Origin: Candidatus Saccharimonadota bacterium
GTDB lineage: Bacteria; Bacteroidota; Bacteroidia; Cytophagales; Amoebophilaceae
Direction: 5' to 3'
Length of the DNA: 32,000 nt
NCBI RefSeq assembly: GCF_936981045.1
Contig: NZ_OW441264.1
Coordinates: 120,001-152,000 of the forward strand
The notes below the pieces were generated by a model that was not told the origin of the DNA, did not search any database, and was given only the letters and a program-made list of their open reading frames with translations. How positions within the stretch are numbered: the stretch's first letter is position 1; every line of letters starts with the position of its first letter. Positions 3,862 to 31,925 of the stretch are shown piece by piece. The position numbers and the translations under genes are program-made.

Positions 3862-5112
3862 TTATAAGCTAAACTTTATACTTCCAGATAATTTATGTTC
3901 TCTTGCTTTATTTTTTGTCTTATCTACTCTACACTCTTTTACTAGACTATATCCGCCAGAAAGCGTGAAATACTTGTTGACTGCATAGGCAACTTTCGGA
4001 ATTAGATTCCACTGAGCCCGAAAGGCTTCAACAGGCTTTTGTGCATCTTCTACCGTTTCCAGATAAGATCCTCTTATAGATAATGTCCATTTAGGTGTTG
4101 CACAGTACTCTAAAGTAGCCCCAAGACCCCATGCATTTATAGAGGACAATGCATTGTTTTCCTTATCTATATAGTAGGCCGCACACATCTCTTTGCGTTC
4201 TTCATCTTTTTGAATAGCTGAAAGTCCTGATACGTAATCACCCAAACCATGCACATAAATACCTTGCGCTGTAGCTGTAAATTTTTTAGGTACCACTTGA
4301 TACTGCATGCCTAAATTCCCACCGTAGGTAGCGTAATAAATACGCTGCAATTTTTTTTCTTCAGAATTAGTACTATGTGTATAGTCTGTACAACGGAGTA
4401 AGCCACTTAAGCTAGTATTACAGCGATCCGTAACAACGCTTAAATTAAAGCCACTAGCTGGTATACTATTCTTAACTTTGAAAGGAAGTTTCTTATCTTT
4501 TAAATGATCTAGTTGAATACTTTGATTCTTTGTATCTTCCTCTTTATCACCTTTTTTTTCCAATGCTGACTTGTTTTTATCAAACAATCCTACTTGTAGC
4601 GCAACAGGCCTTTCAATAGCACAACCCATCCGGAACCAATCAAAAGTATACTCATACTTTAGTTGCAACACAGTTGCGTCTGTGGATATAAACCAAGCAG
4701 GATCTGCTTTTTCATAACCAAAAATACTAGAAGTATAGCCCATCGTTACCATCCTTCCAATAGTTACAGTAGAATTTTTAATGGTAAAAGTGTTTCCATC
4801 CCACTTAGCATCTATCTTTACGGTTGCATCTTTGTTACACCAAGCTTTTGGCACATCCGCATTGAATGTTAGCTGCGCACCAAGACTATTTTTAGTCGAC
4901 CACGTTTGGCGTTGGTATACAAAGGCAGGGCTCATCGTAACAGTAGTGCCCAATTTTATTAAATTTTTAGAATCATCTTTTTTTTCTGCCGCTTCTTCTG
5001 CCTTTTTATCTACTTCATCTTCTTCTAATTGAAATCCACATTGATCAGCATATATAGGATGTAGGATGCTATTGGCAAAAAATAAGCCAAGTAACGCGAT
5101 TTTAATTTTCAT
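3862..5112 (-). CDS. Hypothetical outer-membrane porin-like beta-barrel protein
   Basis: 416-aa ORF with a signal peptide (MKIKIALLGLFFANSILHPIYA), an acidic linker, then alternating beta-strand-like segments with aromatic ends. Confidence 0.6.
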   Translation of the reverse strand: MKIKIALLGLFFANSILHPIYADQCGFQLEEDEVDKKAEEAAEKKDDSKNLIKLGTTVTMSPAFVYQRQTWSTKNSLGAQLTFNADVPKAWCNKDATVKIDAKWDGNTFTIKNSTVTIGRMVTMGYTSSIFGYEKADPAWFISTDATVLQLKYEYTFDWFRMGCAIERPVALQVGLFDKNKSALEKKGDKEEDTKNQSIQLDHLKDKKLPFKVKNSIPASGFNLSVVTDRCNTSLSGLLRCTDYTHSTNSEEKKLQRIYYATYGGNLGMQYQVVPKKFTATAQGIYVHGLGDYVSGLSAIQKDEERKEMCAAYYIDKENNALSSINAWGLGATLEYCATPKWTLSIRGSYLETVEDAQKPVEAFRAQWNLIPKVAYAVNKYFTLSGGYSLVKECRVDKTKNKAREHKLSGSIKFSL

Positions 5113-5421
5113 AGCAATAACATGTTCAAAATTATATAACTTATTATAGTCCTACTTAAGGCCCCCTTGTAAAAAGAGACTAAAAAGCCAGCTATCCGCC
5201 TAACCAGCGCGCTTACTGTTGTAAAAAATACTGAGCTATCAGATAACTAATTATAATAAATATTATGCTTACAAACAATATTTACAAGGAACCATTCATC
5301 TCAATCCAGCAAATTTTGTAGACCTTCCAGCTTGCTTACGCCATTTAATGGCTAATTTTTATCTTGGCATATTTTGTTTTTTGCATGTTTAGGTGGATTA
5401 TACTTGGTACATCGCATAGAC

Positions 5422-5661
5422 ACGTGAGTTCGGGATTAGATTATTTTTTCATTTGATAATCAATATCAATGAAAATTTATAAAATTTGTTTTATAGACAG
5501 TTAAATAGGTAGTTGAATAACAAATAATTCTTATAATCAGTTTATTATATATATTGTATTTATAAAATTAGATATAAAAACTTGTTAAATAGGTGCAAAT
5601 ATTAACTAAATAATTGATATTAAATTGTTGTAAATCAGTCAAATAAATCCCGAACTCACGT
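5422..5661 (+). mobile_element. AT-rich ~240-bp MITE, copy A (orientation a)
   Basis: Starts ACGTGAGTTCGGGATT and ends AATCCCGAACTCACGT. The interior is near-identical to the other copies. The flanks TAGAC/TAATA are not a clean duplication. Confidence 0.85.
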
Positions 5662-5780
5662 TAATAGGCACCCCCCACCTTTTGCCTTGAAATGTTGCGT
5701 TTTCAGAACCAACATGTTATACGATCAGATTGGTCAAAGTTCCTCACCGTATTAAGCGCATCGTGGAATCAATTGGGCTT

Positions 5781-6602
5781 CTATACGTCATTGGCCTTAG
5801 TTATAAAAAAGTAATCTTGTTTTGGCCTTTGGAATAAACGCACCTGTTCCAAGCGATTACTATAAAAAACAGCTCCAGCTCCTATACTGAAATCAAATGA
5901 AAAGTTGGCCCATATACTCTGCTCAGAATGAGCGGGCTTAATAAATGTGTGCACACCCAGCAATTCTTCCAATAACGCATCTGCAGCCACGTCATTCAGC
6001 GGGTTATTATGATTGGGTGGGACTGATTCTTTTGTAGCAATGGCAGAGAAATCACTATTTATCTGGATGTTGGGTTGTTGCAAATAAGGTCTAAGGTTGA
6101 CTTTGTGCCATGTTTGATTGGACAAATCGTATGTCCAAAAATTTATATAAGGGCTACCATCGACGGTTAAATCTATTGGTTTATCATTACGACAGTCACT
6201 TATAATTTTAAAAGATTTGATTTGCACCCATACTTGCCCAATAGGATCGTAAGCATACAGATCTTTTATTTTTTCATATTCATTTAGCACGATCTCGCTT
6301 TTGTTATCACCATCAGTTGGCTCTATGGGTTGTGCCATAGCCTGACTTAAAAGGGCCTCATTAGAGGCATCCTTCGTTTGATTGTTTTGGGTAGGGATGG
6401 AACCACAATGGTCTTTTTTGCTTTTTTTAGAGGAATGTCGCTTGCAAAATTCTTTTATCTTTTGTAAGATCGTCAGGGAGTTTTTACTGGTTGTATTTTT
6501 TACATTTCCTGCATAAGCGTTAGTAAATACGCAAAGAAGAAAACTAGAAATACTTATTAAGATAGGTATTTTACTATGTTTAGGTAGGTTAATGCGCCCC
6601 AT
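5781..6602 (-). CDS. Hypothetical secreted protein
   Basis: 273-aa ORF with an N-terminal signal-like segment (ILISISSFLLCVFTNAYA). No recognisable domain. Confidence 0.6.
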   Translation of the reverse strand: MGRINLPKHSKIPILISISSFLLCVFTNAYAGNVKNTTSKNSLTILQKIKEFCKRHSSKKSKKDHCGSIPTQNNQTKDASNEALLSQAMAQPIEPTDGDNKSEIVLNEYEKIKDLYAYDPIGQVWVQIKSFKIISDCRNDKPIDLTVDGSPYINFWTYDLSNQTWHKVNLRPYLQQPNIQINSDFSAIATKESVPPNHNNPLNDVAADALLEELLGVHTFIKPAHSEQSIWANFSFDFSIGAGAVFYSNRLEQVRLFQRPKQDYFFITKANDV

Positions 6603-6652: not shown

Positions 6653-6790
6653 GCTTCATTCGGCTGGATGGCAATGTTGCGACAAGCAAAGAGTCCGCTT
6701 TAAGCCCCCTCTTAGTAGAGAGTAGCGCAACTTGTTACTAAAAAGGGTATTGCTTGCATGCGTTCTGACCAAGCAAAAAGCAGAGTAGAT
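6653..6790 (+). repeat. Degenerate R-repeat copy
   Basis: Patchy matches to R modules: CATTCGGCTGGATGGC, GCAACTTGT and GACCAAGCAAAAAGCAG. Confidence 0.35.
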
Positions 6791-6993: not shown

Positions 6994-7826
6994 GGTTCTG
7001 TCGCGTTTATTCTAAAAAATGATTATTTTAGTATCGGTATTTAAAAAAGTAGTTATTATGTTTAATATTTCTCCCGAGTTATTACCATATTTTAAAGGTT
7101 ATTGTTCTTCATCAGAAGTCATCCTGTTATTTGTATACATGAAGTGTCGTTTTTCCTTGAGCTATAGAGATTTGGAAGAGATGATGCGTATGAGAGGCGC
7201 AAGAGTTGATCATTCTACGCTACAGAGATGGGTTATTAAGTTTGTTCCTCTGATAGATAAAGCAGTAAGAAAAAGAAAACGACCAATTGGTAGTAGTTGG
7301 AGAATGGATGAAACCTATGTTAAACTAAACGGGAAGTGGATCTATTTATATAGAGCAGTAGATCGTTATGGTGATACAGTTGACTTTTTTCTATCTGATC
7401 ATAGAGACAAGTCTTCAACGCTTTCTTTTTTTCGCAAGGCGATCACAGAAAATAATATTCCTAAGAAAGTAGTAATTGACAAAAGCGGTAGTAATAAAGC
7501 TGCCCTTGATGCGATCAATACAGATCTTGATCAAGATCATACCATTCAAATATTGCAAAACAAATATTTGAATAATAGAGTTGAACAAGATCATAGGTTT
7601 ATCAAAAAACGGATAAAACCTATGCTGGGTTTTAAGAATTTTTATTCTGCTTCCATTACTATTTCAGGGATAGAAAACATTCGTATGATTCAAAAAGGAC
7701 AAGTAAGAGGAGCTAAAAATCATCTTTCTACTTTTGAGAACTTTGCTATCTTAATGGCCGCATAATATCCAAAATTTGACTTAAACGAAAAACCTATACT
7801 AACGAAAATATAGACGCGACAGAACC
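6994..7826 (+). mobile_element. IS6-family insertion sequence, copy 3
   Basis: 833 bp, with GGTTCTGTCGCG at 6994 and CGCGACAGAACC ending at 7826, and an intact ORF. Confidence 0.95.
7019..7765 (+). CDS. IS6-family DDE transposase
   Basis: 248-aa ORF differing from copy 2 by a single residue (RPIGSSW versus RPVGSSW). Confidence 0.93.
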   Translation: MIILVSVFKKVVIMFNISPELLPYFKGYCSSSEVILLFVYMKCRFSLSYRDLEEMMRMRGARVDHSTLQRWVIKFVPLIDKAVRKRKRPIGSSWRMDETYVKLNGKWIYLYRAVDRYGDTVDFFLSDHRDKSSTLSFFRKAITENNIPKKVVIDKSGSNKAALDAINTDLDQDHTIQILQNKYLNNRVEQDHRFIKKRIKPMLGFKNFYSASITISGIENIRMIQKGQVRGAKNHLSTFENFAILMAA

Positions 7827-9332: not shown

Positions 9333-9518
9333 ACTAGAAGATAGCTGCTTGAAAGTATTAATTAATATACGAAGTCACTTATGAATGTGGAAAAATACGT
9401 TGCCGATGCATTAAAAAAATTTTACCCCTTATATGGATTTATATTCTACTTCTGTAATAGAATATGTAAATATATTAAAGATTTAGTTTTAGTAACTATT
9501 TCTAATGAGATAATAATA

Positions 9519-9758
9519 ACTTGAGTTCGGGATTAGATTATTTTTTCATTTGATAATCAATATTAATAAAAATTTATAAAATTTGTTTTATAGACAGTTA
9601 AATAGGTAGTTGAATAACAAATAATTCTGATAATCAGTTTATTATATATATTATATTTATAAAATTAGATATAAAAACTTGTTAAATAGGTGCAAATATT
9701 AACTAAATAATTGATATTAAATTGTTGTAAATCAGTCAAATAAATACCGAACTCACGT
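9519..9758 (+). mobile_element. AT-rich ~240-bp MITE, copy B (orientation a)
   Basis: TIRs ACTTGAGTTCGGGATT / ATACCGAACTCACGT, flanked by the direct repeat TAATA (9514-9518 and 9759-9763). Confidence 0.9.
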
Positions 9759-9824: not shown

Positions 9825-10657
9825 GGTTCTGTCGCGTCTATAGTTTTCTTAGTATAGGTTTTTCGTTTAAGTCAAATTTTGGATATTATGCGGCCATTAA
9901 GATAGCAAAGTTCTCAAAAGTAGAAAGATGATTTTTAGCTCCTCTTACTTGTCCTTTTTGAATCATACGAATGTTTTCTATCCCTGAAATAGTAATGGAA
10001 GCAGAATAAAAATTCTTAAAACCCAGCATAGGTTTTATCCGTTTTTTGATAAACCTATGATCTTGTTCAACTCTATTATTCAAATATTTGTTTTGCAATA
10101 TTTGAATGGTATGATCTTGATCAAGATCTGTATTGATCGCATCAAGGGCAGCTTTATTACTACCGCTTTTGTCAATTACTACTTTCTTAGGAATATTATT
10201 TTCTGTGATCGCCTTTCGAAAAAAAAAAAGCGTTGAAGACTTGTCTCTATGATCAGATAGAAAAAAGTCAACTGTATCACCATAACGATCTACTGCTCTA
10301 TATAAATAGATCCACTTCCCGTTTAGTTTAACATAGGTTTCATCCATTCTCCAACTACTACCAACTGGTCGTTTTCTTTTTCTTACTGCTTTATCTATCA
10401 GAGGAACAAACTTAATAACCCATCTCTGTAGCGTAGAATGATCAACTCTTGCGCCTCTCATACGCATCATCTCTTCCAAATCTCTATAGCTCAAGGAAAA
10501 ACGACACTTCATGTACACAAATAACAGGATGACTTCTGATGAAGAACAATAACCTTTAAAATATGGTAATAACTCGGGAGAAATATTAAACATAATAACT
10601 ACTTTTTTAAATACCGATACTAAAATAATCATTTTTTAGAATAAACGCGACAGAACC
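9825..10657 (-). mobile_element. IS6-family insertion sequence, copy 4
   Basis: 833 bp with the same terminal repeats and an intact ORF. Confidence 0.95.
9886..10632 (-). CDS. IS6-family DDE transposase
   Basis: 248 aa, one residue different (STLFFFRK) from the other copies. Confidence 0.93.
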   Translation of the reverse strand: MIILVSVFKKVVIMFNISPELLPYFKGYCSSSEVILLFVYMKCRFSLSYRDLEEMMRMRGARVDHSTLQRWVIKFVPLIDKAVRKRKRPVGSSWRMDETYVKLNGKWIYLYRAVDRYGDTVDFFLSDHRDKSSTLFFFRKAITENNIPKKVVIDKSGSNKAALDAINTDLDQDHTIQILQNKYLNNRVEQDHRFIKKRIKPMLGFKNFYSASITISGIENIRMIQKGQVRGAKNHLSTFENFAILMAA

Positions 10658-12014: not shown

Positions 12015-12064
12015 TCGATTTCTAAAGTAAGGATTTGATATGCTACTTATATTGGTGTTAAATA

Positions 12065-12304
12065 ACGTGAGCTCGGGATTTATTTGACTGATTTACAACA
12101 ATTTAATATCAATTATTTAGTTAATATTTGCACCTATTTAACAAGTTTTTGTATCTAATTTTATAAATAAAATATATATAATAAACTGATTACCAGAATT
12201 ATTTGTTATTCAACTACCTATTTAACTGTCTATAAAACAAATTTTATAAATTTTCATTAATATTGATTATCAAATTAAAAAATAATCTAATCCCGAACTC
12301 ACGT
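12065..12304 (-). mobile_element. AT-rich ~240-bp MITE, copy C (orientation b)
   Basis: ACGTGAGCTCGGGATT...AATCCCGAACTCACGT, flanked by TAAATA (12059-12064 and 12305-12310), 50 nt upstream of the mtaB start. Confidence 0.9.
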
Positions 12305-12546: not shown

Positions 12547-12990
12547 ATGAATACAATATTAATGTGAGTTCGGGATTAGATTATTTTTTAATTTGATAAT
12601 CAATATTAATGAAAATTTATAAAATTTGTTTTATAGACAGTTAAATAGGTAGTTGAATAACAAATAATTATGGTAATCAGTTTATTGTATATATTTTATT
12701 TATAAAATTAGATATAAAAACTTGTTAAATAGGTGCAAATATTAACTAAATAATTGATATTAAATTGTTGTAAATCAGTCAAATAAATCCCGAACTCACG
12801 TTATTAGACTTAGATGTCAGCAAAAAATAGCTTGATGCATCTTTTTGTAATGCAGAAAATAAACCTGTATATCATAGAGTTTGGTAATAATGATAAAGGG
12901 CATAAGTCGCTTATGGCTTATTTGGCTCAAGCGCCCGTTAAGCTTATAGTATATGAACCAGCTGGTGGATGTGAGAAAGAGACATTTTAG
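12547..12990 (+). pseudogene. IS110-family transposase N-terminal remnant, interrupted by MITE copy D and carrying an in-frame TAG plus a frameshift
   Basis: Removing 12562-12806 restores MNTILDLDVSKK*LDASFCNAENKPVYHRV, then (after a frame shift) FGNNDKGHKSLMAYLAQAPVKLIVYEPAGGCEKETF*. This resembles the conserved IS110/DEDD N-terminus (IGxDVSK..LD .. F.N...G...L..wL .. vv.E.TGGYE). Confidence 0.55.
12562..12801 (+). mobile_element. AT-rich ~240-bp MITE, copy D (orientation a)
   Basis: ATGTGAGTTCGGGATT...AATCCCGAACTCACGT, flanked by TATTA (12557-12561 and 12802-12806). It is inserted after codon 5 of the IS110-like ORF. Confidence 0.9.
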
Positions 12991-15624: not shown

Positions 15625-15675
15625 GTGCTGTTTGTTGATCCAGCAAAAAACAGCACATCAATTCCTTTTTTACCA
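15625..15675 (+). terminator. Hairpin plus T-run after valS (a stand-alone copy of the R-repeat hairpin-2 module)
   Basis: GTGCTGTTT (15625-15633) pairs perfectly with AAACAGCAC (15648-15656). The loop contains TTGATCCAGCAA. The T-run CCTTTTTT follows. It begins 10 nt after the stop codon. Confidence 0.5.
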
Positions 15676-17134: not shown

Positions 17135-17334
17135 ATGTCCTCTGCTGCTTACTGACCTTATTGCGAAAAAGAAGGCCCCTTGTAAAAGGTTGCGATGCAA
17201 AAGTCCATATTACCGTTGAAAAGAAAAACAGTTTAGGTGAAGGTCACGAAGTCGCTTCTGTTTTTTCCGGTGTGCTTGAAGCAACTTTTTATACAGGGCT
17301 TGATTTTTGGGCTACCTTTTGATCAAGCAAAAAG
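17135..17334 (+). repeat. R repeat, copy R1 (forward)
   Basis: GGCCCCTTGTAAAAGGTTGC (17174-17193) pairs with GCAACTTTTTATACAGGGC (17281-17299). TTGATTTTTGG follows, then the hairpin CTTTTGATCAAGCAAAAAG. It aligns with 25965-26153. Confidence 0.75.
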
Positions 17335-17354
17335 TGTGATATAAATTCTTTCCA

Positions 17355-19193: not shown

Positions 19194-19236
19194 GGGTATC
19201 TGTTTAGGTCAGTGATAAAAAAGGCATTTATATCCT

Positions 19237-19271
19237 GCTTTTTGCTTGATCAAAAAGTAGGCAAAAAAGCT
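19237..19271 (-). repeat. R repeat copy R5, hairpin-2 part (reverse orientation), abutting IS6 copy 5
   Basis: CTGCTTTTTGCTTGATCAAAAAGTAGGCAAAAAAGC matches 28175-28210. Confidence 0.65.
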
Positions 19272-20104
19272 GGTTCTGTCGCGTCTATAGTTTTCTTAGT
19301 ATAGGTTTTTCGTTTAAGTCAAATTTTGGATATTATGCGGCCATTAAGATAGCAAAGTTCTCAAAAGTAGAAAGATGATTTTTAGCTCCTCTTACTTGTC
19401 CTTTTTGAATCATACGAATGTTTTCTATCCCTGAAATAGTAATGGAAGCAGAATAAAAATTCTTAAAACCCAGCATAGGTTTTATCCGTTTTTTGATAAA
19501 CCTATGATCTTGTTCAACTCTATTATTCAAATATTTGTTTTGCAATATTTGAATGGTATGATCTTGATCAAGATCTGTATTGATCGCATCAAGGGCAGCT
19601 TTATTACTGCCGCTTTTGTCAATTACTACTTTCTTAGGAATATTATTTTCTGTGATCGCCTTTCGAAAAAAAGAAAGCGTTGAAGACTTGTCTCTATGAT
19701 CAGATAGAAAAAAGTCAACTGCATCACCATAACGATCTACTGCTCTATATAAATAGATCCACTTCCCGTTTAGTTTAACATAGGTTTCATCCATTCTCCA
19801 ACTACTACCAACTGGTCGTTTTCTTTTTCTTACTGCTTTATCTATCAGAGGAACAAACTTAATAACCCATCTCTGTAGCGTAGAATGATCAACTCTTGCG
19901 CCTCTCATACGCATCATCTCTTCCAAATCTCTATAGCTCAAGGAAAAACGACACTTCATGTATACAAATAACAGGATGACTTCTGATGAAGAACAATAAC
20001 CTTCAAAATATGGTAATAACTCGGGAGAAATATTAAACATAATAACTACTTTTTTAAATACCGATACTAAAATAATCATTTTTTAGAATAAGCGCGACAG
20101 AACC
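19272..20104 (-). mobile_element. IS6-family insertion sequence, copy 5
   Basis: 833 bp with the same terminal repeats and an intact ORF. Its flanks are the two ends of an R repeat. Confidence 0.95.
19333..20079 (-). CDS. IS6-family DDE transposase
   Basis: 248 aa, two residue differences (YFEGY, YGDAVDF) from the other copies. Confidence 0.93.
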   Translation of the reverse strand: MIILVSVFKKVVIMFNISPELLPYFEGYCSSSEVILLFVYMKCRFSLSYRDLEEMMRMRGARVDHSTLQRWVIKFVPLIDKAVRKRKRPVGSSWRMDETYVKLNGKWIYLYRAVDRYGDAVDFFLSDHRDKSSTLSFFRKAITENNIPKKVVIDKSGSNKAALDAINTDLDQDHTIQILQNKYLNNRVEQDHRFIKKRIKPMLGFKNFYSASITISGIENIRMIQKGQVRGAKNHLSTFENFAILMAA

Positions 20105-20321: not shown

Positions 20322-20539
20322 GTATCTATTCAGCTACCTGGTAACGTTACACTCCAAAAACAGAAGAAATGCCCATTATAAAAAGTTGCGACTCATCACC
20401 CTTTCCTGAAAGATGACCAGAAAATCAGTTTGGTTGGGCTTGTAGGGCGGCTTCTGGTTTTCCAGCTTTAGGGGTACACTTTCAGCAACTTTTTACACAG
20501 AGCTTGATTTTTTTGGCTACTTCTTTATCAAGAAAAAAG
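20322..20539 (+). repeat. R repeat, copy R3 (forward on +), between tRNA-Arg and tRNA-Pro
   Basis: GTATCTATTCAGC.., GCCCATTATAAAAAGTTGC .. GCAACTTTTTACACAGAGC, TTGATTTTTTTGGCTACTTCTTTATCAAGAAAAAAGTAGG. Confidence 0.7.
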
Positions 20540-20559
20540 TAGGATATACATTCCTTTCG

Positions 20560-20634
20560 TCGGGGCGGCAGGATTCGAACCTGCGACCTTCTGCTCCCAA
20601 AGCAGACGCGATAACCGAGCTACGCTACGCCCCG
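20560..20634 (-). tRNA. tRNA-Pro (anticodon TGG)
   Basis: Acceptor CGGGGCG/CGCCCCG, anticodon stem TCTGC/GCAGA with loop TTTGGGA, T arm GCAGG-TTCGAAT-CCTGC. Confidence 0.92.
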
Positions 20635-20643
20635 AATGTACAA

Positions 20644-20883
20644 ACGTGAGTTCGGGATTTATTTGACTGATTTACAACAATTTAATATCAATTATTTAGT
20701 TAACATTTGCACCTATTTAACAAGTTTTTATATCTAATTTTATAAATATAATATATATAATAAACTGATTATCAGAATTATTTGTTATTCAACTACCTAT
20801 TTAACTGTCTATAAAACAAATTTTATAAATTTTTATTAATATTGATTATCAAATGAAAAAATAATCTAATCCCGAACTCACGT
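20644..20883 (-). mobile_element. AT-rich ~240-bp MITE, copy E (orientation b), between tRNA-Pro and tRNA-Ser
   Basis: Perfect TIRs ACGTGAGTTCGGGATT / AATCCCGAACTCACGT, flanked by TACAA (20639-20643 and 20884-20888). Confidence 0.92.
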
Positions 20884-20901
20884 TACAAGTAAGATAGTGG
20901 G

Positions 20902-20990
20902 CGGATAAGGGGGGATTCGAACCCCCGGTACAGAACAATCCATACCGCAGTTTAGCAAACTGCTGGTTTAAGCCACTCACCCACCTATCC
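20902..20990 (-). tRNA. tRNA-Ser (anticodon GCT), long variable arm
   Basis: Acceptor GGATAGG/CTTATCC, anticodon stem GCAGT/ACTGC with loop TTGCTAA, variable arm GGTA..TACC, T arm GGGGG-TTCGAAT-CCCCC. Confidence 0.9.
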
Positions 20991-21099
20991 ATATAACCTT
21001 GACAGATATAAGGCATGTAAATTTACTAAAGTTATAACAAAAAAGTGCATATAATTTTCAAAAACTTAGGTTGTATCTAGTATAAATGAGGGTTTATGG

Positions 21100-24402: not shown

Positions 24403-24591
24403 AATGCAAAAGTGAAAAATAATTTAAATTTAAACTGCGTTTGATAGGCTTTAGACCTTCCTTTTAGGAGGCTAAAATATAGTAAATTTTAAATTTGTAC
24501 AAGAAGTTTCCTAAGTATTTCCTGCTACTACTATTTAATATTTTTTATCCACATCTTAACACTAACGTTCACTGATATTGTACATAATTAT

Positions 24592-25824
24592 ATGCAAATT
24601 TCTTTTTTTCTTGCCAAACGTTACGTTAAAAAACATGGCTACACAACCCTGATTTGTAAATTGTCTAGACTGGCTTGCTATAGTATGGCATTGGGTACAG
24701 CTATTTTAGTATGCATACTATCCACTATGAATGGTATGGAAAAGCTATTATCCGCTTTATTTTATTCCTATACGCCTACATTAAAAATAGAACCTAGAAC
24801 AAGTAAAACATTTGTCTATGATCCCAAATTAAAAAGTAAGCTGATGCATCTTGCTAGTGTAACAAATATTGTGGAAGTATTAGAAGCAACTGCACTGGTA
24901 CGGTTGCAGCGTCAGCAGACCATTGTGACCATTAAAGGCGTTTCAAATAATTTCCCAGAAAGTGACTTTTATAGAAATTGCAGGCGTATGGATGCGGTTA
25001 CTTTTTGGGGGGATGGTAAGCTTCAAGCTGCTGCGGGTATACGGGTTGCCCAATGTTTACAATGGGCACCTGATAACAATAGGGTAGAGGTTTTTTATCC
25101 AAAGCAGGGCAGCCACCATCTACATCAGCCCTATAAGCGTGTAACTTTAGAGGTGAATGGCCTTTTCTCTATAGCGCGGCAAATAGATAGCAAGTATATG
25201 ATTACCTCTATTCACTTTGTGGAAGCGTTGACCGATGGCTTCCATAAACGTACCTATTGGGAGGTTGTAATCAAAGATACAGCGGCGCTAACAAGCACGC
25301 AAGCAAGCATACAAAGATTATTACCAGATGGCTATAAGGTAACCAATCGAGATGAACAAAATGAAACCCGTCGTAGAGCTATTTTTATTGAGCGGCTTTG
25401 CGTCTCTTTTATTTTTGCTTTGGTATTGCTTTTGGCCTCGCTTCATATTTTCTTTATGCTATGCATGTTGATATTACACAAGCAAAAAGATATCATGATC
25501 CTTTCTTCACTTGGGGCTACACCGGGTCAAATAGGTAAGGTTTTTTTCTATAGTGGGCTTTTGGTATCCTTGAAAGGTATTCTATATGGTCTTATAATAG
25601 GGTGGGCTTTGTGCTTGTTGCAGCAAAAATTTGGCATCATTACCTTTACTAAGGCGTGCAATAGGACCCCTTATCCTATAGAGATGCATCGGTTCGATTG
25701 CTTATACACCTCTATTGTAACCACTTTATTTAGTCTTTTAGCTTCCCTTTGGCCGGTGAAGCGAGCTATCCAATTGGCCAGGAAGTCATTGGGTGGCGCC
25801 AACTTAAAGGAAAATGTATTTTAA
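24592..25824 (+). CDS. FtsX/LolC/LolE-family ABC transporter permease
   Basis: 410 aa. N-terminal FFLAKRYV TM, a large periplasmic loop, then three C-terminal TMs (FtsX-like architecture). Confidence 0.75.
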   Translation: MQISFFLAKRYVKKHGYTTLICKLSRLACYSMALGTAILVCILSTMNGMEKLLSALFYSYTPTLKIEPRTSKTFVYDPKLKSKLMHLASVTNIVEVLEATALVRLQRQQTIVTIKGVSNNFPESDFYRNCRRMDAVTFWGDGKLQAAAGIRVAQCLQWAPDNNRVEVFYPKQGSHHLHQPYKRVTLEVNGLFSIARQIDSKYMITSIHFVEALTDGFHKRTYWEVVIKDTAALTSTQASIQRLLPDGYKVTNRDEQNETRRRAIFIERLCVSFIFALVLLLASLHIFFMLCMLILHKQKDIMILSSLGATPGQIGKVFFYSGLLVSLKGILYGLIIGWALCLLQQKFGIITFTKACNRTPYPIEMHRFDCLYTSIVTTLFSLLASLWPVKRAIQLARKSLGGANLKENVF

Positions 25825-25964
25825 TTTGATTGAATATCAAATTAGACCTATTTTGAAGCCTATTTCTAATGACAATTTTGGTGTCGAAGCTTGTTTATGC
25901 TCGTCAAATACACCCTACTACAAGGCATAGCATATTGGAAATAAAATTAATAATTCAGAAATTG

Positions 25965-26153
25965 TGCTGCTTATTGTTCCTATTACGAAAAAGAACGCCC
26001 CTTGTAAAAAGTTGCCATTAGAAAGTGCACCTTACAAATGAAAAGAAAAATTGAAGCCCGCGTAGCGGACGAGTTCTGTTTTTCTCGGTGTGCTTGCAGC
26101 AATTTTTTGCATGAGGGCTTGATTTTTTGGCTACTTTTTGATCCAGCAAAAAG
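25965..26153 (+). repeat. R repeat, copy R2 (forward)
   Basis: TGCTGCTTATTG..CGAAAAAGAACGCCCCTTGTAAAAAGTTGC .. GCAATTTTTTGCATGAGGGCTTGATTTTTTGGCTACTTTTTGATCCAGCAAAAAG, colinear with R1. Confidence 0.75.
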
Positions 26154-26174
26154 CAACATTCATCATCCTTATTA

Positions 26175-26413
26175 ACGTGAGTTCGGTATTTATTTGACTG
26201 ATTTACAATAATTTAATATCAATTATTTAGTTAATATTTGCACCTATTTAACAAGTTTTTATATCTAATTTTATAAATATAATATATATAATAAACTGAT
26301 TATCAGAATTATTTTTTATTCAACAACCTATTTAACTGTCTATAAAACAAATTTTATAAATTTTCATTAATATTGATTATCAAATAAAAAATAATCTAAT
26401 CCCGAACTCACGT
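26175..26413 (-). mobile_element. AT-rich ~240-bp MITE, copy F (orientation b), ending 13 nt before the metG ATG
   Basis: ACGTGAGTTCGGTATT...AATCCCGAACTCACGT, flanked by TATTA (26170-26174 and 26414-26418). Confidence 0.92.
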
Positions 26414-26426
26414 TATTAGTACACAA

Positions 26427-28127
26427 ATGGCTCATCCAAAAAGATATACGGTTACCGCTGCACTTCCCTATGCAAATGGGCCCGTCCACTTAGGTCATGT
26501 AGCAGGGGCCTATCTTCCTGCTGATATTTACGTTCGTTATTTAAGGCAAAAACAAGCTACTGTAGTGTTTATTAGTGGTTCTGATGAACATGGGGTGCCT
26601 GTGGTAATTCGTGCCCAACAAGAAGGTTCTACGCCTCAAAAAGTAGTGGATCAATACCATACACTTATTAAAGAATCACTAGATGGATTGGGTATTAGCT
26701 TTGATATCTTTGCAAGAACGTCCTCACCTACTCATTATGAGACCGCAACGGAATTTTTTAAGGAATTGCACCAAAAGGACATATTTGAGGTGTATGCAAC
26801 AGAGCAATATTATGACCCTGTTTGTGAGCAATTTCTATCTGATCGCTACATCAAGGGCAGCTGTCCGAACCCGAACTGTAATCATCCCGATGCCTATGGA
26901 GATCAATGTGAAGCGTGTGGCAGCACACTAAGTCCAGAAGAATTGATTGATCCAATTTCTGTTATTAGCGGCGCAAAACCTATTTTAAGATCCACTAAAC
27001 ATTGGTATCTACCACTAGATAAGTATGAAGGCTGGCTTAAAAAGTGGATTTTAGAAGAACATAAAGATTTTAAAACCAATGTATATGGTCAATGTAAAAG
27101 CTGGCTAGACCAAGGTTTGCGTCCACGTGCTGTAACCCGTGATTTAGCTTGGGGCATTCCTGTTCCACTGCCTGAAGGAAGCGGAAAGGTCCTCTATGTC
27201 TGGTTCGATGCACCGATTGGGTATATTAGCGCAACCAAAGAGTGGGCAAAAGCACAACAAATCGATTGGAAACCTTTTTGGAAAGATCCAGCTACCAAGC
27301 TTGTCCATTTCCTTGGCAAAGACAATATTGTATTCCATTGTATTATTTTTCCTGTTATGCTTAAAGCACATGGAAAGTTTATTTTGCCTCAGCAGGTTCC
27401 AGCCAATGAATTTTTAAATTTAGAGGGAAAGAAGATTTCTACATCCCGCAACCATGCGGTTTGGTTGCATGATTATTTAGCAGATTTTCCAGATAAAGCA
27501 GATGTATTGCGTTATGTACTCTGTACCATTGCGCCAGAAAATAAAGACAGCGATTTTACTTGGCAAGATTTCCAGGATAAAAATAATTATGAACTGGTAG
27601 CTAACCTTGGCAATTTGGTCCATAGAACCCTAAGTTTGGTGCATCAATATTTTCGTGGATTGGTTCCACCCAATATGGCGCCTAATGAAGCGGATCAATC
27701 CTTACTGACTACATTAATGGCTTCTTTTACAGAAGTAGGTAATGCTATAGAACAGTTTAAATTTAAAGAAGCACTCCAATTATGTATGGGCTACGCTACA
27801 TTGGGCAATAAATACCTAACCGATAGGCGACCATGGCATTTGGTAAAAAGCAACCTAGAAGAGGCTGGCACTGTATTGCATGTCACATTGCAACTCATAG
27901 CTACTGTAACCCTGTTGATCAAACCTTTTTTGCCTACAACAAGTGAGAAAATGGCGCATATGTTGGGGTTAAAAGAAACAGGCTGGGGGAACTTACATGT
28001 GACCAAGCTCGTACAATCAGGGGATCCATTAGCACTTCCTATATTATTATTTGAGAAAATTGAAGATGATGTCATTGAAGTACAAAGGAAAAAGTTACAA
28101 AGCCTATCTACTGAAACAGTAGTGTAA
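26427..28127 (+). CDS. metG: Methionine--tRNA ligase (short form without a C-terminal tRNA-binding domain)
   Basis: PVHLGH (HIGH), KISTS (KMSKS), zinc knuckle CPNPNCNHPDAYGDQCEACG, 566 aa. Confidence 0.92.
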   Translation: MAHPKRYTVTAALPYANGPVHLGHVAGAYLPADIYVRYLRQKQATVVFISGSDEHGVPVVIRAQQEGSTPQKVVDQYHTLIKESLDGLGISFDIFARTSSPTHYETATEFFKELHQKDIFEVYATEQYYDPVCEQFLSDRYIKGSCPNPNCNHPDAYGDQCEACGSTLSPEELIDPISVISGAKPILRSTKHWYLPLDKYEGWLKKWILEEHKDFKTNVYGQCKSWLDQGLRPRAVTRDLAWGIPVPLPEGSGKVLYVWFDAPIGYISATKEWAKAQQIDWKPFWKDPATKLVHFLGKDNIVFHCIIFPVMLKAHGKFILPQQVPANEFLNLEGKKISTSRNHAVWLHDYLADFPDKADVLRYVLCTIAPENKDSDFTWQDFQDKNNYELVANLGNLVHRTLSLVHQYFRGLVPPNMAPNEADQSLLTTLMASFTEVGNAIEQFKFKEALQLCMGYATLGNKYLTDRRPWHLVKSNLEEAGTVLHVTLQLIATVTLLIKPFLPTTSEKMAHMLGLKETGWGNLHVTKLVQSGDPLALPILLFEKIEDDVIEVQRKKLQSLSTETVV

Positions 28128-28174
28128 AGCACTTTATGGATACTTTTTTTCTTGATACGAAGGATGATATCTAC

Positions 28175-28359
28175 CACTTTTTGCTTGATCAAAAAGTGGA
28201 CAAAAAATCAAGATCAAGCGCTGATGAAAAAAGTTGTGAGTAGAAAATGTAGCTTACAGCTGATTTTCCAGCTACAAGCTACATTTTCTACTCACAACTT
28301 TTTCCAATGCGCATTTTTTCTTGTTTTAGGGTAGTATGGCTAAAAGGTTGAATGGATAC
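28175..28359 (-). repeat. R repeat, copy R4 (reverse), with a near-perfect ~35-bp stem
   Basis: Hairpin CCACTTTTTGCTTGATCAAAAAGTGG. The long inverted repeat 28227-28262 / 28269-28303 (AAAAAGTTGTGAGTAGAAAATGTAGCTT..) has 2 mismatches. It ends GGTTGAATGGATAC. Confidence 0.8.
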
Positions 28360-28405
28360 TAATTAACGTGAGTTCGGGATTTATTTGACTGATTTACAAC
28401 AATTT

Positions 28406-29681
28406 TAGGCCGTTGTGATAGATTTCTATTATAATATTTTTAGGGTTGTTTAGACTGATTTTTGGTATTAAAGTGGTATTAATTTTATTATTTATTGATT
28501 TTCATGTACTTTTATTGCATTTTAGACAGACCATTCCTCTAAAGACCTCTTAATATGATATTTGGCGACCTGTATAAGTTATAGGCTATTGCTTCGATAA
28601 CGTGTTGCGTATGAGTTTTAGCAAGTCCTATGTAGCGAGCTCCTGAGCTTCGGAACCAACTTTTAATACTTCCAAATACACGTTCTACTTTATACCTGGT
28701 TTTAGCTACCAATGTATTAAACCGTTTAGCAGTAGGTGATAAAGGATTATTTCTAGTAGCTTTCTTCTGAATAGCTGATTTTAAGGCTTTATTCTTTAAT
28801 AAGGTTTCATTAGGTGATCCGCTATAGCCCTTATCTGCATATAGCCTACTACCTACTTTTAGCTCTACTTTATCCAATAAGACTTGTAAATGAGCACTAT
28901 CATGACTAGATGCTTTTGTGGTACTGACTGCTAGGACTAAGCCTTCTTTACTTTCCACAAGGATGTGACGCTTATACCCATAGTAGAGATTATCTCCTTT
29001 TTTTGTCCAACTCGCTTCTGGATCTACACCTTTTTGATAACTTTCGGCTACAGTTATAGTGCCATCTTCATGGAGATCATAGCTTTTTTTACCTTTAGGG
29101 CGCCTAGGGGTAGGCGTAATAGAGGCATCAACAACTGCACCATGTTGAACTAATACACCATGACTAGATAGTTGATCGTTAATTATTTTCAATAACCTTT
29201 CTAGGACCTGCTTCTCCGTAAGCGCAGTCCTAAACCTGCTTAATACGCTATGATCTGGAACAGAACTATCCATGGAAATACGACAAAATCTGCTGAAAGT
29301 GATACGATCATTTACTTCTTCTTCTACTTGATAGTCACTCAGAGCATACCATGTTTGAAGCAACAGCATTTTAAATAAAAGAAGTGGGCTATAAGCTGCC
29401 TTTCCTGATAAACACAAACCTTTAGGATAATACAAGAAAAGTTCTTTTTCTATTACTTTCCAAGTAATCAGCTTATTAAGCTGATCGAAAAAAGTATGCT
29501 TACACTTACGTCGACTGGCTGAAATATCTGCAAAACTTAATTGATTATTTGTTTTGACGGCCATAACAATATTATTAAAAAGCTTAAGTTTAAACGATTA
29601 AAGAATCAACCTAATTTAACCATTGTATAACACTAAAAGTCACTTTTTATAACAAAGCTTAAAACTCTATTGCAACAACTT
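28406..29681 (-). mobile_element. IS5-family insertion sequence (~1.28 kb) nested in MITE G
   Basis: Contains a 341-aa IS5/InsH-like transposase. The MITE sequence (C)AATTT is duplicated at both junctions. The terminal repeats are imperfect (GTTGT..ATAGA.TTT), so the ends are good to about +/-5 nt. Confidence 0.8.
28539..29564 (-). CDS. IS5-family DDE transposase (InsH-like)
   Basis: N-terminal LSFADI..YSPLLLFKMLLLQTWYALSDYQVEEEVNDRITFSRF (transposase InsH N-terminal domain pattern). DDE region VVDASI .. YADKGY .. ERVFGSIK. Confidence 0.85.
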   Translation of the reverse strand: MAVKTNNQLSFADISASRRKCKHTFFDQLNKLITWKVIEKELFLYYPKGLCLSGKAAYSPLLLFKMLLLQTWYALSDYQVEEEVNDRITFSRFCRISMDSSVPDHSVLSRFRTALTEKQVLERLLKIINDQLSSHGVLVQHGAVVDASITPTPRRPKGKKSYDLHEDGTITVAESYQKGVDPEASWTKKGDNLYYGYKRHILVESKEGLVLAVSTTKASSHDSAHLQVLLDKVELKVGSRLYADKGYSGSPNETLLKNKALKSAIQKKATRNNPLSPTAKRFNTLVAKTRYKVERVFGSIKSWFRSSGARYIGLAKTHTQHVIEAIAYNLYRSPNIILRGL

Positions 29682-29955
29682 CAATTTAATATCAATTATT
29701 TAGTTAATAATTGCACCTATTTAATAAGTTTTTATATCTAATTTTATAAATATAATATATATAATAAACTGATTATCAGAATTATTTGTTATTCAACTAC
29801 CTATTTAACTGTCTATAAAACAAATTTTATAAATTTTTATTAATATTGATTATCAAATGAAAAAATAATCTAATCCCGAACTCACGTTGGTTAGTATTTT
29901 TTTATCTCCAAATTTAAAACACAAAGGAGCTTTTTAAAGCTATTTTTTAACAAGC

Positions 29956-29972
29956 TAATCCCGAACTCAGGT
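29956..29972. repeat. Solo MITE terminus
   Basis: TAATCCCGAACTCAGGT has one mismatch to the MITE end, with no MITE interior attached. It lies 5 nt before the point where ppdK homology begins. Confidence 0.7.
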
Positions 29973-29977
29973 TATAT

Positions 29978-30379
29978 AAGATTGGTGTAATGATAGAGTT
30001 GCCAAGAGCAGCCTTACAAGCGGCAACCATTTCACCATTGGTCGATTTTTTTAGAATTGGAACCAATGATTTAACCCAAACTACCCTTGGTATTTCACGT
30101 GATGATGGCGCAAAATTTTTAGACAGTTACCAACAAAAGGGCTTGCTTAAAGGAGACCCTTTTGTTACGCTTGATCAAGAAGGCGTTGGAAAATTGATTC
30201 AAATAGCGGTAGCAAGAGGTAGGTCGGCCAATCCAAATTTAAAAATAGGTATTTGTGGCGAACATGGAGGCAATCCACCTTCTATTGAATTTTTCGAGTC
30301 GATAGGTTTAGATTATATATCCTGTTCTCCATATAGAGTGCCTATTGCAAAGTTAGCTGCTGCCAAGGTAAGGAAGTGA
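29978..30379 (+). pseudogene. ppdK: Pyruvate, phosphate dikinase C-terminal remnant (~133 codons of an expected ~900)
   Basis: [13 protein letters not shown] .. [20 protein letters not shown] .. [35 protein letters not shown] matches the PEP-utilising TIM-barrel end of PPDK. No upstream domains are present. Confidence 0.8.
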
Positions 30380-31880: not shown

Positions 31881-31925
31881 ATATTAATCTAAAAAATGGT
31901 AATAAATAAGGCATTTGTATGCTAC

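Follow-up and report, generated by a model that had tools for sequence, protein, structure and literature searches.

A copy of the published element MITECca01 is virtually certain to have inserted into a TATTA sequence 8 nt 5' of the metG start codon, duplicating these 5 bp, in the window analysed here (the whole stretch of 32,000 nucleotides). The MITE now stands between metG and all of its former upstream sequence and, judged from the sequence, metG would have to be transcribed from or through it, which is a situation of a known kind. We favour transcription that starts upstream of the MITE and reads through it over a start at an outward promoter inside the element. The locus contains the following features.

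24490-24497, plus strand: exact Bacteroidota-type -7 box TAAATTTG, candidate promoter of the lolE-like gene, 94 nt 5' of that gene
24592-25824, plus strand: FtsX/LolE-like permease gene, upstream neighbour of metG (Pfam FtsX; NCBIfam lolCE below cut-off)
25965-26160, plus strand: R repeat
26170-26174: left TATTA of the 5-bp target-site duplication (TSD), read from the sequence
26175-26413, minus strand: MITECca01 copy, 239 bp, without ORF (inverted repeats, alignment to the published element)
26414-26426, plus strand: 13 nt separating the MITE from the metG ATG, made up of the right TATTA (26414-26418) and GTACACAA (26419-26426)
26427-28127, plus strand: metG (methionine--tRNA ligase), ATG at 26427, intact, 566 aa (Pfam tRNA-synt_1g, 8.9e-152)
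28159-28335, minus strand: inverted R copy just past the metG stop (28-bp perfect stem, then a T-run; z = -8.9)

The element upstream of metG is a MITECca01 copy

An earlier note on this DNA had placed the element at 26175-26413, with a TATTA duplication and only GTACACAA remaining before metG. These coordinates were confirmed, and the distance of 13 nt between the MITE end and the ATG proved exact to the base (26413 versus 26427). Read base by base, the junctions are cctTATTA/ACGTGAGTTCGGTATT...AATCCCGAACTCACGT/TATTAgtacacaaATG (left edge, MITE ends, right edge), in which ACGTGAGTTCGGTATT and AATCCCGAACTCACGT are the 16-nt inverted repeats; ACGTGAGTTCGG and CCGAACTCACGT are found exactly at the two ends as terminal inverted repeats (TIRs). 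The 12-nt terminal core ACGTGAGTTCGG has 15 matches in the window with at most two mismatches, versus 0.56 expected. The G+C content of this copy is 18.4%, versus 37.2% window-wide. Its orientation is the reverse of the published sequence, with the published IRL (26398-26413) adjoining metG, and the ORF list contains no ORF of at least 40 aa inside it, the sole overlap being a 40-aa GTG ORF on the other strand that extends into metG. Short length (under ~300 bp) without a transposase gene, TIRs, a target-site duplication, several dispersed copies and relatives with an empty site are the general properties of a MITE, and all were found.

The element is already published and is not new. MITECca01 was described as a ~240-bp IS982-family MITE derived from ISCca4 and present in 169 copies in Cardinium cOegib, a spider endosymbiont (PMC9769881; Halter, Hendrickx, Horn, Manzano-Marin 2022), whose genome also holds seven intact copies of ISCca4 (PMC9769881). 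The copies in the window are identical to the reverse complement of MITECca01 at 224-229 of ~241 aligned columns; the published sequence used is a machine reading of Fig. S1 of PMC9769881, and the alignment gaps fall mostly on that side. The ISCca2-type IS6 load of the window also agrees with cOegib, and the genome carrying the MITE is that of a Cardinium endosymbiont matching this strain. The MITE ends, AC...GT, have the conserved 5'-AC ends of the IS982 family, whose traits were taken from PMC7335449 for this comparison. In Emticicia agri, a 1-kb IS (L030:559-1558) is delimited by the same 18-nt terminus as the MITE, and its ORF matches NF033520 (IS982) with 174.5 bits (cut-off 130). When genome contigs were scanned with the 18-nt right end, the terminus was found across many phyla, with one Cardinium and one Amoebophilaceae locus among the matches listed. 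The 41-nt interior pattern of the MITE gave 0 matches in metagenome contigs, and neither the MITE nor the R repeat matched Rfam at gathering or permissive thresholds.

Other MITECca01 copies in the window

The window holds six intact ~240-bp copies of MITECca01 and one that is interrupted by an IS5-family IS. Five of the six intact copies are flanked by 5-bp duplications (TATTA, AAATA, TACAA, TATTA, TAATA).

20559-20634, minus strand: tRNA-Pro(TGG)
20644-20883, plus strand: MITECca01 copy, TSD TACAA, between tRNA-Ser(GCT) and tRNA-Pro(TGG)
20898-20991, minus strand: tRNA-Ser(GCT)
28366-29887, plus strand: MITECca01 copy interrupted by the IS5-family IS
28406-29682: IS5-family IS, ~1277 bp, with a 341-aa transposase on the minus strand
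29888-29972, minus strand: IRL-side fragment (first 85 nt) of ISCca4, the MITE's IS982-family parent, cut off by the adjoining MITE copy

The copy at the tRNA pair interrupts 8 nt before tRNA-Pro, and its orientation to the downstream gene is opposite to that of the metG copy. After removal of this MITE and one TSD copy the spacing between tRNA-Ser and tRNA-Pro is 19 nt, which indicates that the two formerly belonged to one transcription unit. The copies at 5422 and 12562 have an exact TAnnTTTG box between the MITE and the gene that it faces, and these two genes are therefore not MITE-dependent.

The region 28366-29887, which has the same ends and encodes a 341-aa DDE transposase, was considered as the autonomous parent of the MITE and rejected. 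The transposase is of the IS5 family (NF033581, 288 bits; the IS982 model gives only 55.6), and the inner 1277 bp has imperfect TIRs of its own, TAGGCCGTTGTGATAGA and GAAGTTGTTGCAATAGA, with 5-6 bp of MITE sequence duplicated (AATTT or CAATTT). In addition, the shared terminus is that of IS982-family elements and of published ISCca4. No intact ISCca4 is present within the window; the fragment at 29888-29972 is identical to ISCca4 of PMC9769881 Fig. S1 at 83 of 84 nt.

The insertion at metG is lineage-specific

The comparison with orthologous metG upstream regions lacking the insertion, which the earlier note had proposed, was carried out on six loci. No MITE precedes metG in L002, L004, L005, L006 and L007, and the empty sites of L004 (...TCCTTATTGATTACACAAATG) and L005 (...TCCTATTTTTTACACAAATG) are element-free. 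Because the orthologous loci L002, L004 and L005 are without the element, the insertion is lineage-specific. L001, the closest relative, has a 63-nt insert upstream of metG that has in common with the MITE only the terminal ACGTGAGT and the GCTTGTA signature, and an insertion shared by descent was set aside on these grounds. The L001 insert is possibly an independent relic of a different IS982-type end, next to the same TATTA and with the same orientation.

The metG product shares 93% identity with its nearest relative, and no record turned up when the exact MetG protein was looked up. The ATG and the preceding ACACAA are common to L001, L002 and L004, with the same context in L005, whereas L006 and L007 diverge just 5' of the ATG. 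This conservation among orthologues indicates that the metG start codon is correct. A T/A-rich block (TTATTA or TTTTTTA) directly precedes ACACAA-ATG in L001, L002, L004 and L005, out of six orthologous loci read, and the TSD re-creates this block. Further upstream, a TATATTT(A/G) box ~70 nt 5' of metG is common to L005 and L006. The adjacency of lolE and metG in L001, L005 and L007 represents ancestral synteny. In L002, L004 and L006 the gene upstream of metG is different or divergent, and metG must therefore have its own promoter there.

The R repeat upstream of the MITE resembles a terminator

The earlier note had the upstream gene ending about 600 nt away and followed by an R hairpin repeat. 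In agreement with this, 602 nt separate the end of the lolE-like gene (25824) from the metG ATG, and R occupies the positions given above. R contains a long imperfect hairpin at 25986-26129 (~145 nt, -53 kcal/mol), which an A-run and a U-run close (CTTGATTTTTTGG, ~26118-26130), followed by a small hairpin (26134-26153) and then a degenerate tail. The R copies in the window are intergenic and occur in both orientations. From these properties R looks like a terminator, and the inverted copy at 28159-28335 is likely to be the metG terminator. A simple scan for canonical short-loop terminators found none on the plus strand of 25825-26426 and none inside the MITE on either strand.

The R-tail motif TAGCATATAAATTCCTT is found 5' of several genes and is degenerate at the metG locus (CAACATTCATCATCCTT). 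We also considered the motif (A)GTAGCATAT(A/C)AAT.CCTTA as a Cardinium promoter. It lies in the R tail and upstream of a miaB-like gene, gltX, sufB, the gene of an ABC transporter and metG of L004, but it is also found downstream of stop codons and in either orientation.

Promoter sequences between lolE and metG

The 13 nt before the ATG (TATTAGTACACAA) contain nothing resembling a -7 box and are too short for a -33/-7 pair, which spans ~40 nt. The metG promoter very probably does not lie within them, and is to be sought, in part at least, within the MITE or 5' of it, so that the earlier placement of the promoter inside or upstream of the element was sound. It was likewise right that no string matches TAnnTTTG exactly: none is present on the plus strand of the lolE to metG interval (25825-26426). 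This absence weighs little, since of 48 Cardinium upstream regions only 9 have an exact box in sense, versus 5 in antisense.

Inside the MITE, which is 82% A+T, the metG strand has six 5/6 matches to TAnnTTTG. None of the six has a -33 TTG at 15-23 nt, and the outward -33 TTTG / -7 TAnnTTTG arrangement of the IS1187/cfiA type was not found, which is a weak test. The earlier note had drawn attention to TA..TTT strings about 80 nt upstream of the ATG. The -7-like string that it singled out, TATAAATTTTC, is present (26355-26365, plus strand), but at a distance of 62-72 nt; within it, TAAATTTT (26357-26364) fits 5/6 specified positions and lacks a TTG at -33. As promoter hints such strings carry no weight, 5/6 matches being common at 18% G+C and the exact consensus being rare even in genuine Cardinium upstream regions. 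No -7 box is recognisable in the 46 nt from the U-run of R to the MITE, and the best candidate upstream of the MITE, TACTTTTT (26132-26139) with TTTG 22 nt further 5', fits only 5/6 positions. A sigma-70-type scan, the TAnnTTTG scan and 6-mer sense/antisense enrichment (49 upstream regions) had no discriminating power, and transcript or TSS data for the strain were not found in the searchable literature.

Routes of metG transcription

Two routes had been proposed, a promoter inside the MITE and read-through from lolE. R weakens the second, and a third had been omitted, namely initiation in the 46 nt between the R hairpin and the MITE. We give about an even chance to upstream initiation with read-through across the MITE being the main route of metG transcription. 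The start point would then lie 5' of the MITE, most likely at ~26130-26175, between the R hairpin and the insertion site, with residual lolE read-through as a less likely source. A start in this gap is favoured over plain lolE read-through because R resembles a terminator by its hairpin and U-run, because the inverted R copy with its 28-bp stem and T-run follows the metG stop, and because R is intergenic in both orientations. RNA polymerase would traverse the MITE, which is without a terminator in either orientation, and the element would become a ~250-nt 5' leader of metG. In this leader the TIRs would pair into a 14-bp stem ending ~12 nt before the ATG, and the conserved A-rich ACACAA-AUG would stay free. 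In folds of the read-through RNA the 14-bp TIR stem is predicted in the MFE as well as the centroid structure, with the last ~12 nt before the AUG outside it. Such a long structured leader (~250 nt) could carry a cost for an essential gene.

By the same permeability, tRNA-Pro(UGG) would still be made past the opposite-orientation copy. Both cases would thus be explained by one property, two-way permeability, whereas the outward-promoter explanation requires two promoters, the second at the opposite end of the element. We therefore prefer upstream initiation with a MITE leader over an outward promoter, to which we attach a lower though still substantial likelihood. According to this alternative, metG transcription starts in the A+T-rich interior of the MITE, for example at TAAATTTT or at TAATATTG (26368-26375), and exits via the IRL end, so that the MITE would be a mobile promoter like IS1187 for cfiA in Bacteroides and the Correia elements in Neisseria. 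The six near-matches on the metG strand are consistent with it, but they are expected anyway in DNA of 18% G+C, none is an exact -7 consensus and all lack the -33 TTG. The terminator-like R would create a need for a promoter downstream of it, IS982-family elements donate -33/-7 or hybrid promoters (PMC7335449), and promoter-bearing MITEs are known, including BrickBuilt in Porphyromonas (PMC10969869). The possible L001 relic, a different IS982-type end abutting this TATTA and oriented alike, points the same way; the exact boxes beside the 5422 and 12562 copies argue against an outward promoter. With 82% A+T, six near-matches and promoter donors in the IS982 family, an internal promoter is entirely plausible.

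Upstream initiation also includes the case in which lolE and metG are co-transcribed from the TAAATTTG promoter and RNA polymerase crosses R as well as the MITE; this case is counted within the chance given above and is by itself unlikely. The two genes lie on one strand, their synteny is ancestral (L001, L005, L007), the simple scan revealed no canonical short-loop terminator on the plus strand, and terminators are often leaky in reduced endosymbiont genomes. Against this stand the R hairpin of -53 kcal/mol with its U-run, the own metG promoter required in L002, L004 and L006, and the TATATTT(A/G) box ~70 nt 5' of metG in L005 and L006. Equally improbable is that MITECca01 serves in both directions as a mobile promoter or leader module, driving or conditioning metG at its IRL end and tRNA-Pro(UGG) at its IRR end. 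Host-essential expression would in that case depend on a selfish element of ~169 copies, and the possible L001 relic at the same TATTA would be the trace of repeated selection for promoter donation once R had displaced the ancestral promoter. Finally, a junction promoter, with the retained TATTAGTA beside the ATG as -7, upstream contacts from the MITE end and a leaderless or near-leaderless metG mRNA, would account for the T/A-rich block that four of the six loci share and for its re-creation by the TSD, but is very unlikely, as TATTAGTA fits TAnnTTTG at only 3/6 specified positions and neither the MITE end nor the reconstructed pre-insertion sequence has a -33 TTG.

Comparison with known systems

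The element at metG is the same as MITECca01 of cOegib in its size of ~240 bp, its 16-nt inverted repeats, its matching sequence, its high copy number, its mostly intergenic location and its ISCca4 parent. PMC9769881 does not discuss, for MITECca01, the expression of neighbouring genes, the positions at metG and tRNA-Pro, the 5-bp TAnnA-like duplications or the orientation. The present finding is a correct positional observation on a single copy of a published element; new here are the terminator-like R hairpin upstream and the opposite-orientation copy that splits the tRNA-Ser/tRNA-Pro pair. Should transcription of metG and tRNA-Pro indeed start in MITECca01 or pass across it, the two loci would be a clear case of essential-gene expression entangled with a proliferating MITE in a heritable endosymbiont, and would be relevant to the viability of repeat-rich, drifting genomes.

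That ISs and MITEs act as promoters or leaders is a general phenomenon, well documented in Bacteroides, Acinetobacter and Neisseria. BrickBuilt of Porphyromonas gingivalis is, like MITECca01, a MITE in Bacteroidota, and is reported to have promoter-like sequences (cited in PMC10969869); its sequence and parent are probably unrelated. The Correia elements (CREE/nemis) of Neisseria are abundant MITEs near gene starts that are co-transcribed into 5' leaders, form a TIR hairpin and carry promoters in some subtypes, and one of them sits between the mtrCDE promoter and its genes (PMC10969869). They belong to another transposase family and duplicate TA, and their RNase III cleavage and promoter activity are experimental, whereas MITECca01 is known here from its sequence. 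Both are abundant MITEs just 5' of genes, and the metG copy has the leader traits of no internal terminator and predicted TIR pairing. Among IS982-family elements, IS1187 upstream of cfiA in Bacteroides fragilis and ISAba825, ISAba9 and ISAba4 upstream of blaOXA are mobile or hybrid promoters (PMC7335449). In these cases full-length ISs switch on accessory genes that are otherwise silent or weak, from mapped start sites, in contrast to the metG case, a non-autonomous derivative before an essential housekeeping gene, with no exact -33/-7. The case of IS1187 and cfiA nevertheless involves the same transposon family and phylum as that of metG, and in both the insertion lies immediately 5' of the gene, so that the element must contribute to transcription or transmit it.

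A MITECca01 copy adjoins the metG start codon

Read directly from the window, the junction upstream of metG runs cctTATTA, then ACGTGAGTTCGGTATT...AATCCCGAACTCACGT, then TATTAgtacacaaATG. The following features were delineated:

24592-25824, same strand as metG: FtsX/LolE-like permease gene, ending 602 nt before the metG ATG
26170-26174: left TATTA
26175-26413: MITE before metG, 239 bp
26414-26418: right TATTA
26419-26426: GTACACAA, between the right TATTA and the metG ATG
26427-28127, + strand: metG, ATG at 26427, 566 aa, intact

The positions of the MITE, its TATTA duplication and the ATG are those of an earlier note to the base, and the distance of about 600 nt to the upstream gene given there is likewise in agreement with our measurement. 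The window DNA belongs to a Cardinium endosymbiont (Bacteroidota, Amoebophilaceae). metG encodes a methionyl-tRNA synthetase of class I (Pfam tRNA-synt_1g, 8.9e-152, plus Anticodon_3) whose closest relatives are all from Cardinium (93-70% identity). By comparison with these relatives the start codon assignment is secure, since the same ATG preceded by ACACAA is present in three Cardinium orthologues (L001, L002 and L004) and L005 shares this context. The metG loci L006 and L007 encode an N-terminal region as in the window MetG, and differ directly 5′ of the ATG. An in-frame TAA is located 30 nt 5′ of the ATG in the window.

The 12-nt terminal core of the element occurs 15 times in the window (0.56 expected), and six copies are intact:

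5422-5661
9519-9758
12065-12304
12562-12801
20644-20883
26175-26413

Five of the six are flanked by 5-bp duplications (TATTA, AAATA, TACAA, TATTA, TAATA). MITECca01, derived from the IS982-family member ISCca4, was described as a ~240-bp element whose 169 copies account for 3.5% of the 1.14-Mb Cardinium cOegib genome (PMC9769881). When the six window copies are reverse-complemented, the sequence in Fig. S1 of that paper agrees with them at 224-229 of ~241 columns; it was machine-read from the figure, and most differences are reading gaps. This alignment identifies the window element as exactly the published MITECca01; because it is the reverse complement that aligns, the metG copy is inverted relative to the published orientation, with IRL adjoining metG. 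Three substitutions private to the metG copy, together with a 1-nt deletion, set it apart from the other window copies; the insertion is therefore not brand new, though metG is intact.

Among the matches listed (contigs L008-L055), the 18-nt terminus CTAATCCCGAACTCACGT is found unchanged in members of the Bacteroidota, Cyanobacteria, Acidobacteriota, Chloroflexota and Planctomycetota, and in a Neisseria. A 1-kb element of Emticicia agri (L030:559-1558) has it at its two ends, and the ORF of this element scores 174.5 bits against the NCBIfam IS982 model (cut-off 130). Checked on these sequences, the IS982-family assignment of the MITE is supported independently of the paper. Traits of this family are 5′-AC ends and a variable duplication length (PMC7335449). 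In L010, L013, L014 and L025, also among the matches listed, two CTAATCCCGAACTCACGT-type ends lie just 140-390 bp apart; hence this IS group seems to have given rise to MITE-like derivatives more than once.

Terminator-like repeats flank metG

Repeat R was found at the following positions:

25965-26160, + strand: R, between the lolE-like gene and metG
17143-17351, + strand: R
~20330-20558, + strand: R
28159-28335, - strand: R, inverted
15627-15670: partial R (hairpin plus tail)
19221-19279: partial R (hairpin plus tail)
6749-6782: partial R (hairpin plus tail)
L001 ~4880-5080, L004 ~5745-5950, L023 ~3200-3400: R in other Cardinium strains

R is ~200 nt long. Pairing of its ~30-nt imperfect terminal inverted repeats gives a long hairpin that an A-run and a U-run close; a small hairpin and a tail come after it. 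Common to the copies is a long-range stem of ~24 pairs in which GAAAAAGAACGCCCCTTGTAAAAAGTTGC pairs with GCAACTTTTTACACAGGGCTTGATTTTTT; the interior that it encloses varies, its stem sequences changing from copy to copy with pairing kept. R is placed between genes in both orientations, is shared by several Cardinium strains, and has no Rfam match. Upstream of metG it folds into a single hairpin closed by the A-run and U-run (25986-26129, -53.3 kcal/mol, z = -2.9); directly 3′ of the metG stop, the inverted copy has 28 bp of perfect stem and then a T-run (-80.6 kcal/mol, z = -8.9). From these predicted folds R looks like a repeat-borne bidirectional intrinsic terminator, or else a second MITE-like family; its large loop explains why a simple terminator scan did not pick it up.

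The metG promoter would lie inside or upstream of the MITE

Judged by its sequence, the 13 nt retained by metG cannot hold a Bacteroidota promoter. The core argument of the earlier note, that the promoter must be inside or upstream of the MITE because 13 nt is too short, is thus right. Of the two routes that it offered, a promoter in the MITE is plausible, while plain read-through from lolE across R is made less likely than assumed there by the terminator-like R hairpin.

No exact TAnnTTTG box is present on the + strand between the lolE-like gene and metG, as had been noted before; the TA..TTT string TATAAATTTTC, previously placed ~80 nt upstream, is really at 26355-26365, 62-72 nt from the ATG. 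R contains a 5/6 match (TACTTTTT, 26132-26139, + strand) with TTTG 22 nt upstream. Near-matches have almost no discriminating value, because in 48 Cardinium upstream regions exact boxes numbered 9 in sense versus 5 in antisense orientation; where found, they were 14-130 nt from the ATG. A 6-mer enrichment test of the upstream regions gave no signal. The L002 metG has no exact TAnnTTTG within 150 nt upstream; it must have its own promoter, as the neighbouring gene is divergent. The literature searched contained no TSS mapping or RNA-seq of this strain and no promoter study for any Cardinium.

A ~20-28-nt motif, (ATATA)AGTAGCATAT(A/C)AAT.CCTTA, is found repeatedly at 7-160 nt 5′ of genes unrelated to one another (a miaB-like gene, gltX, sufB, an ABC transporter gene and L004 metG):

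12027-12046, - strand
~31905-31924, - strand
~9430-9448, - strand
17336-17352, + strand
L004 5971-5990

It is also the tail of R, and at the window metG it is degenerate and located upstream of the MITE. The motif could be a promoter/operator or a repeat terminus.

Removal of the MITE and one TATTA reconstructs the pre-insertion site ...CAAAAAGCAACATTCATCATCCTTATTAGTACACAAATG, which aligns with element-free loci, among them that of the Nabis limbatus strain (L004, ...ATTCCTTATTGATTACACAAATG). At this site the metG ATG is 32 nt from the small hairpin of R and 54 nt from its U-run. In L005 and L006, which lack R, a TATATTT(A/G) box is conserved ~70 nt 5′ of metG; on this alignment it is probably the ancestral metG promoter, displaced later by R in the lineage that comprises L001, L004 and the window. 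In L001, the closest relative (93%), a 63-nt insert (5094-5156) ends ...GACTCACGT directly before the same TATTA. It has the terminal ACGTGAGT and the GCTTGTA signature in common with IS982-type IRLs, and little else, and may be what is left of a different IS982-type IRL that landed independently at this site, oriented as in the window.

We consider there to be an even chance that metG is transcribed from a start site upstream of the MITE, which would most probably be between the R U-run and the insertion site; the smaller part of that chance goes to read-through from lolE. The MITE would then form a ~250-nt 5′ leader of the metG transcript. The predicted fold of this leader has a 14-bp stem of paired TIRs, which stops ~12 nt short of the AUG and does not include the ACACAA-AUG context. 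On the analogy of Correia elements, the stem could be processed by RNase III (PMC10969869). Possible, and to us somewhat less probable, is that an outward promoter inside the MITE drives metG, for which IS1187/cfiA and other IS982-family members are a precedent (PMC7335449); the + strand of the MITE interior has six 5/6 TAnnTTTG matches, all of them lacking a -33 TTG partner. We regard it as very improbable that the retained TATTAGTA serves as a junction or leaderless promoter, as this sequence matches 3 of the 6 specified TAnnTTTG positions and lacks a -33 element.

A second essential gene adjoins MITECca01

20898-20991, - strand: tRNA-Ser(GCT)
20559-20634, - strand: tRNA-Pro(TGG)

This tRNA pair is split by the MITECca01 copy 20644-20883. 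Taking out the MITE and one TACAA leaves 19 nt between the two genes, which were thus formerly one transcription unit. The copy ends 8 nt before tRNA-Pro, likely the sole proline tRNA (UGG) in a genome with 35 tRNAs, and the published IRR end faces this downstream gene. Two essential genes, metG and tRNA-Pro, are thus located ≤13 nt from MITECca01 ends in opposite orientations. Either MITECca01 has outward promoters at both ends, or RNA polymerase passes through it both ways. A simple terminator scan found no terminator-like site inside MITECca01 on either strand. We favour bidirectional passage, since it requires one property instead of two and no luck at insertion. An R copy is located between tRNA-Pro and tRNA-Arg(TCT), and the tRNA genes are intact despite the repeat-riddled cluster.

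Other repeats in the window

Region 28366-29887, with MITE ends and a 341-aa DDE transposase, was considered as autonomous parent of the MITE and rejected for its IS5-type interior: the transposase scores 288 bits with the IS5-family model NF033581 versus 55.6 bits with IS982. The inner element (28406-29682) ends in separate imperfect TIRs, TAGGCCGTTGTGATAGA and GAAGTTGTTGCAATAGA, and is bordered by a 5-6-bp duplicate of MITE sequence. By these sequence features the region is a MITECca01 copy into which an IS5-family IS, probably ISCca3 of PMC9769881, inserted. No target duplication flanks the outer copy, suggestive of a past recombination or deletion. The region is adjoined by:

29888-29972: first 85 nt of ISCca4, 83/84 nt matching

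Downstream of metG, pyruvate phosphate dikinase is reduced to its C-terminal 129 aa (PEP-utilizers_C, 29990-30379), whereas the gene is intact at that position in L002, L004 and L006 (ppdK, 880-934 aa); the truncation point adjoins the MITE, IS5 and ISCca4 debris. MITECca01 copies 12065-12304 and 12562-12801 are head to head, 257 nt apart, between a miaB-like gene and a divergently transcribed class-I tRNA synthetase gene at 13144. Five copies of an IS6-family element (~832 bp, 248-aa transposase) are present, one of them truncated at the edge of the window; they are consistent with ISCca2, which outnumbers every other IS in cOegib:

1-194
2941-3772
6995-7826
9825-10657
19267-20104

Two lspA genes (signal peptidase II, Peptidase_A8) lie in tandem on the - strand (288-869 and 897-1487), and the repeat finder detected a 197-nt stretch at 82% identity inside both.

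Comparison with known systems

What is new is confined to the MITECca01 copy 13 nt before metG, the splitting of tRNA-Ser/tRNA-Pro by another copy, the 5-bp TAnnA-like duplication of the element and the terminator-like nature of R. MITECca01 itself has been published, as have its family, copy number and mostly intergenic location; promoter or leader roles of MITEs and ISs are amply documented, and the MITE-metG arrangement is ordinary for a repeat-rich endosymbiont.
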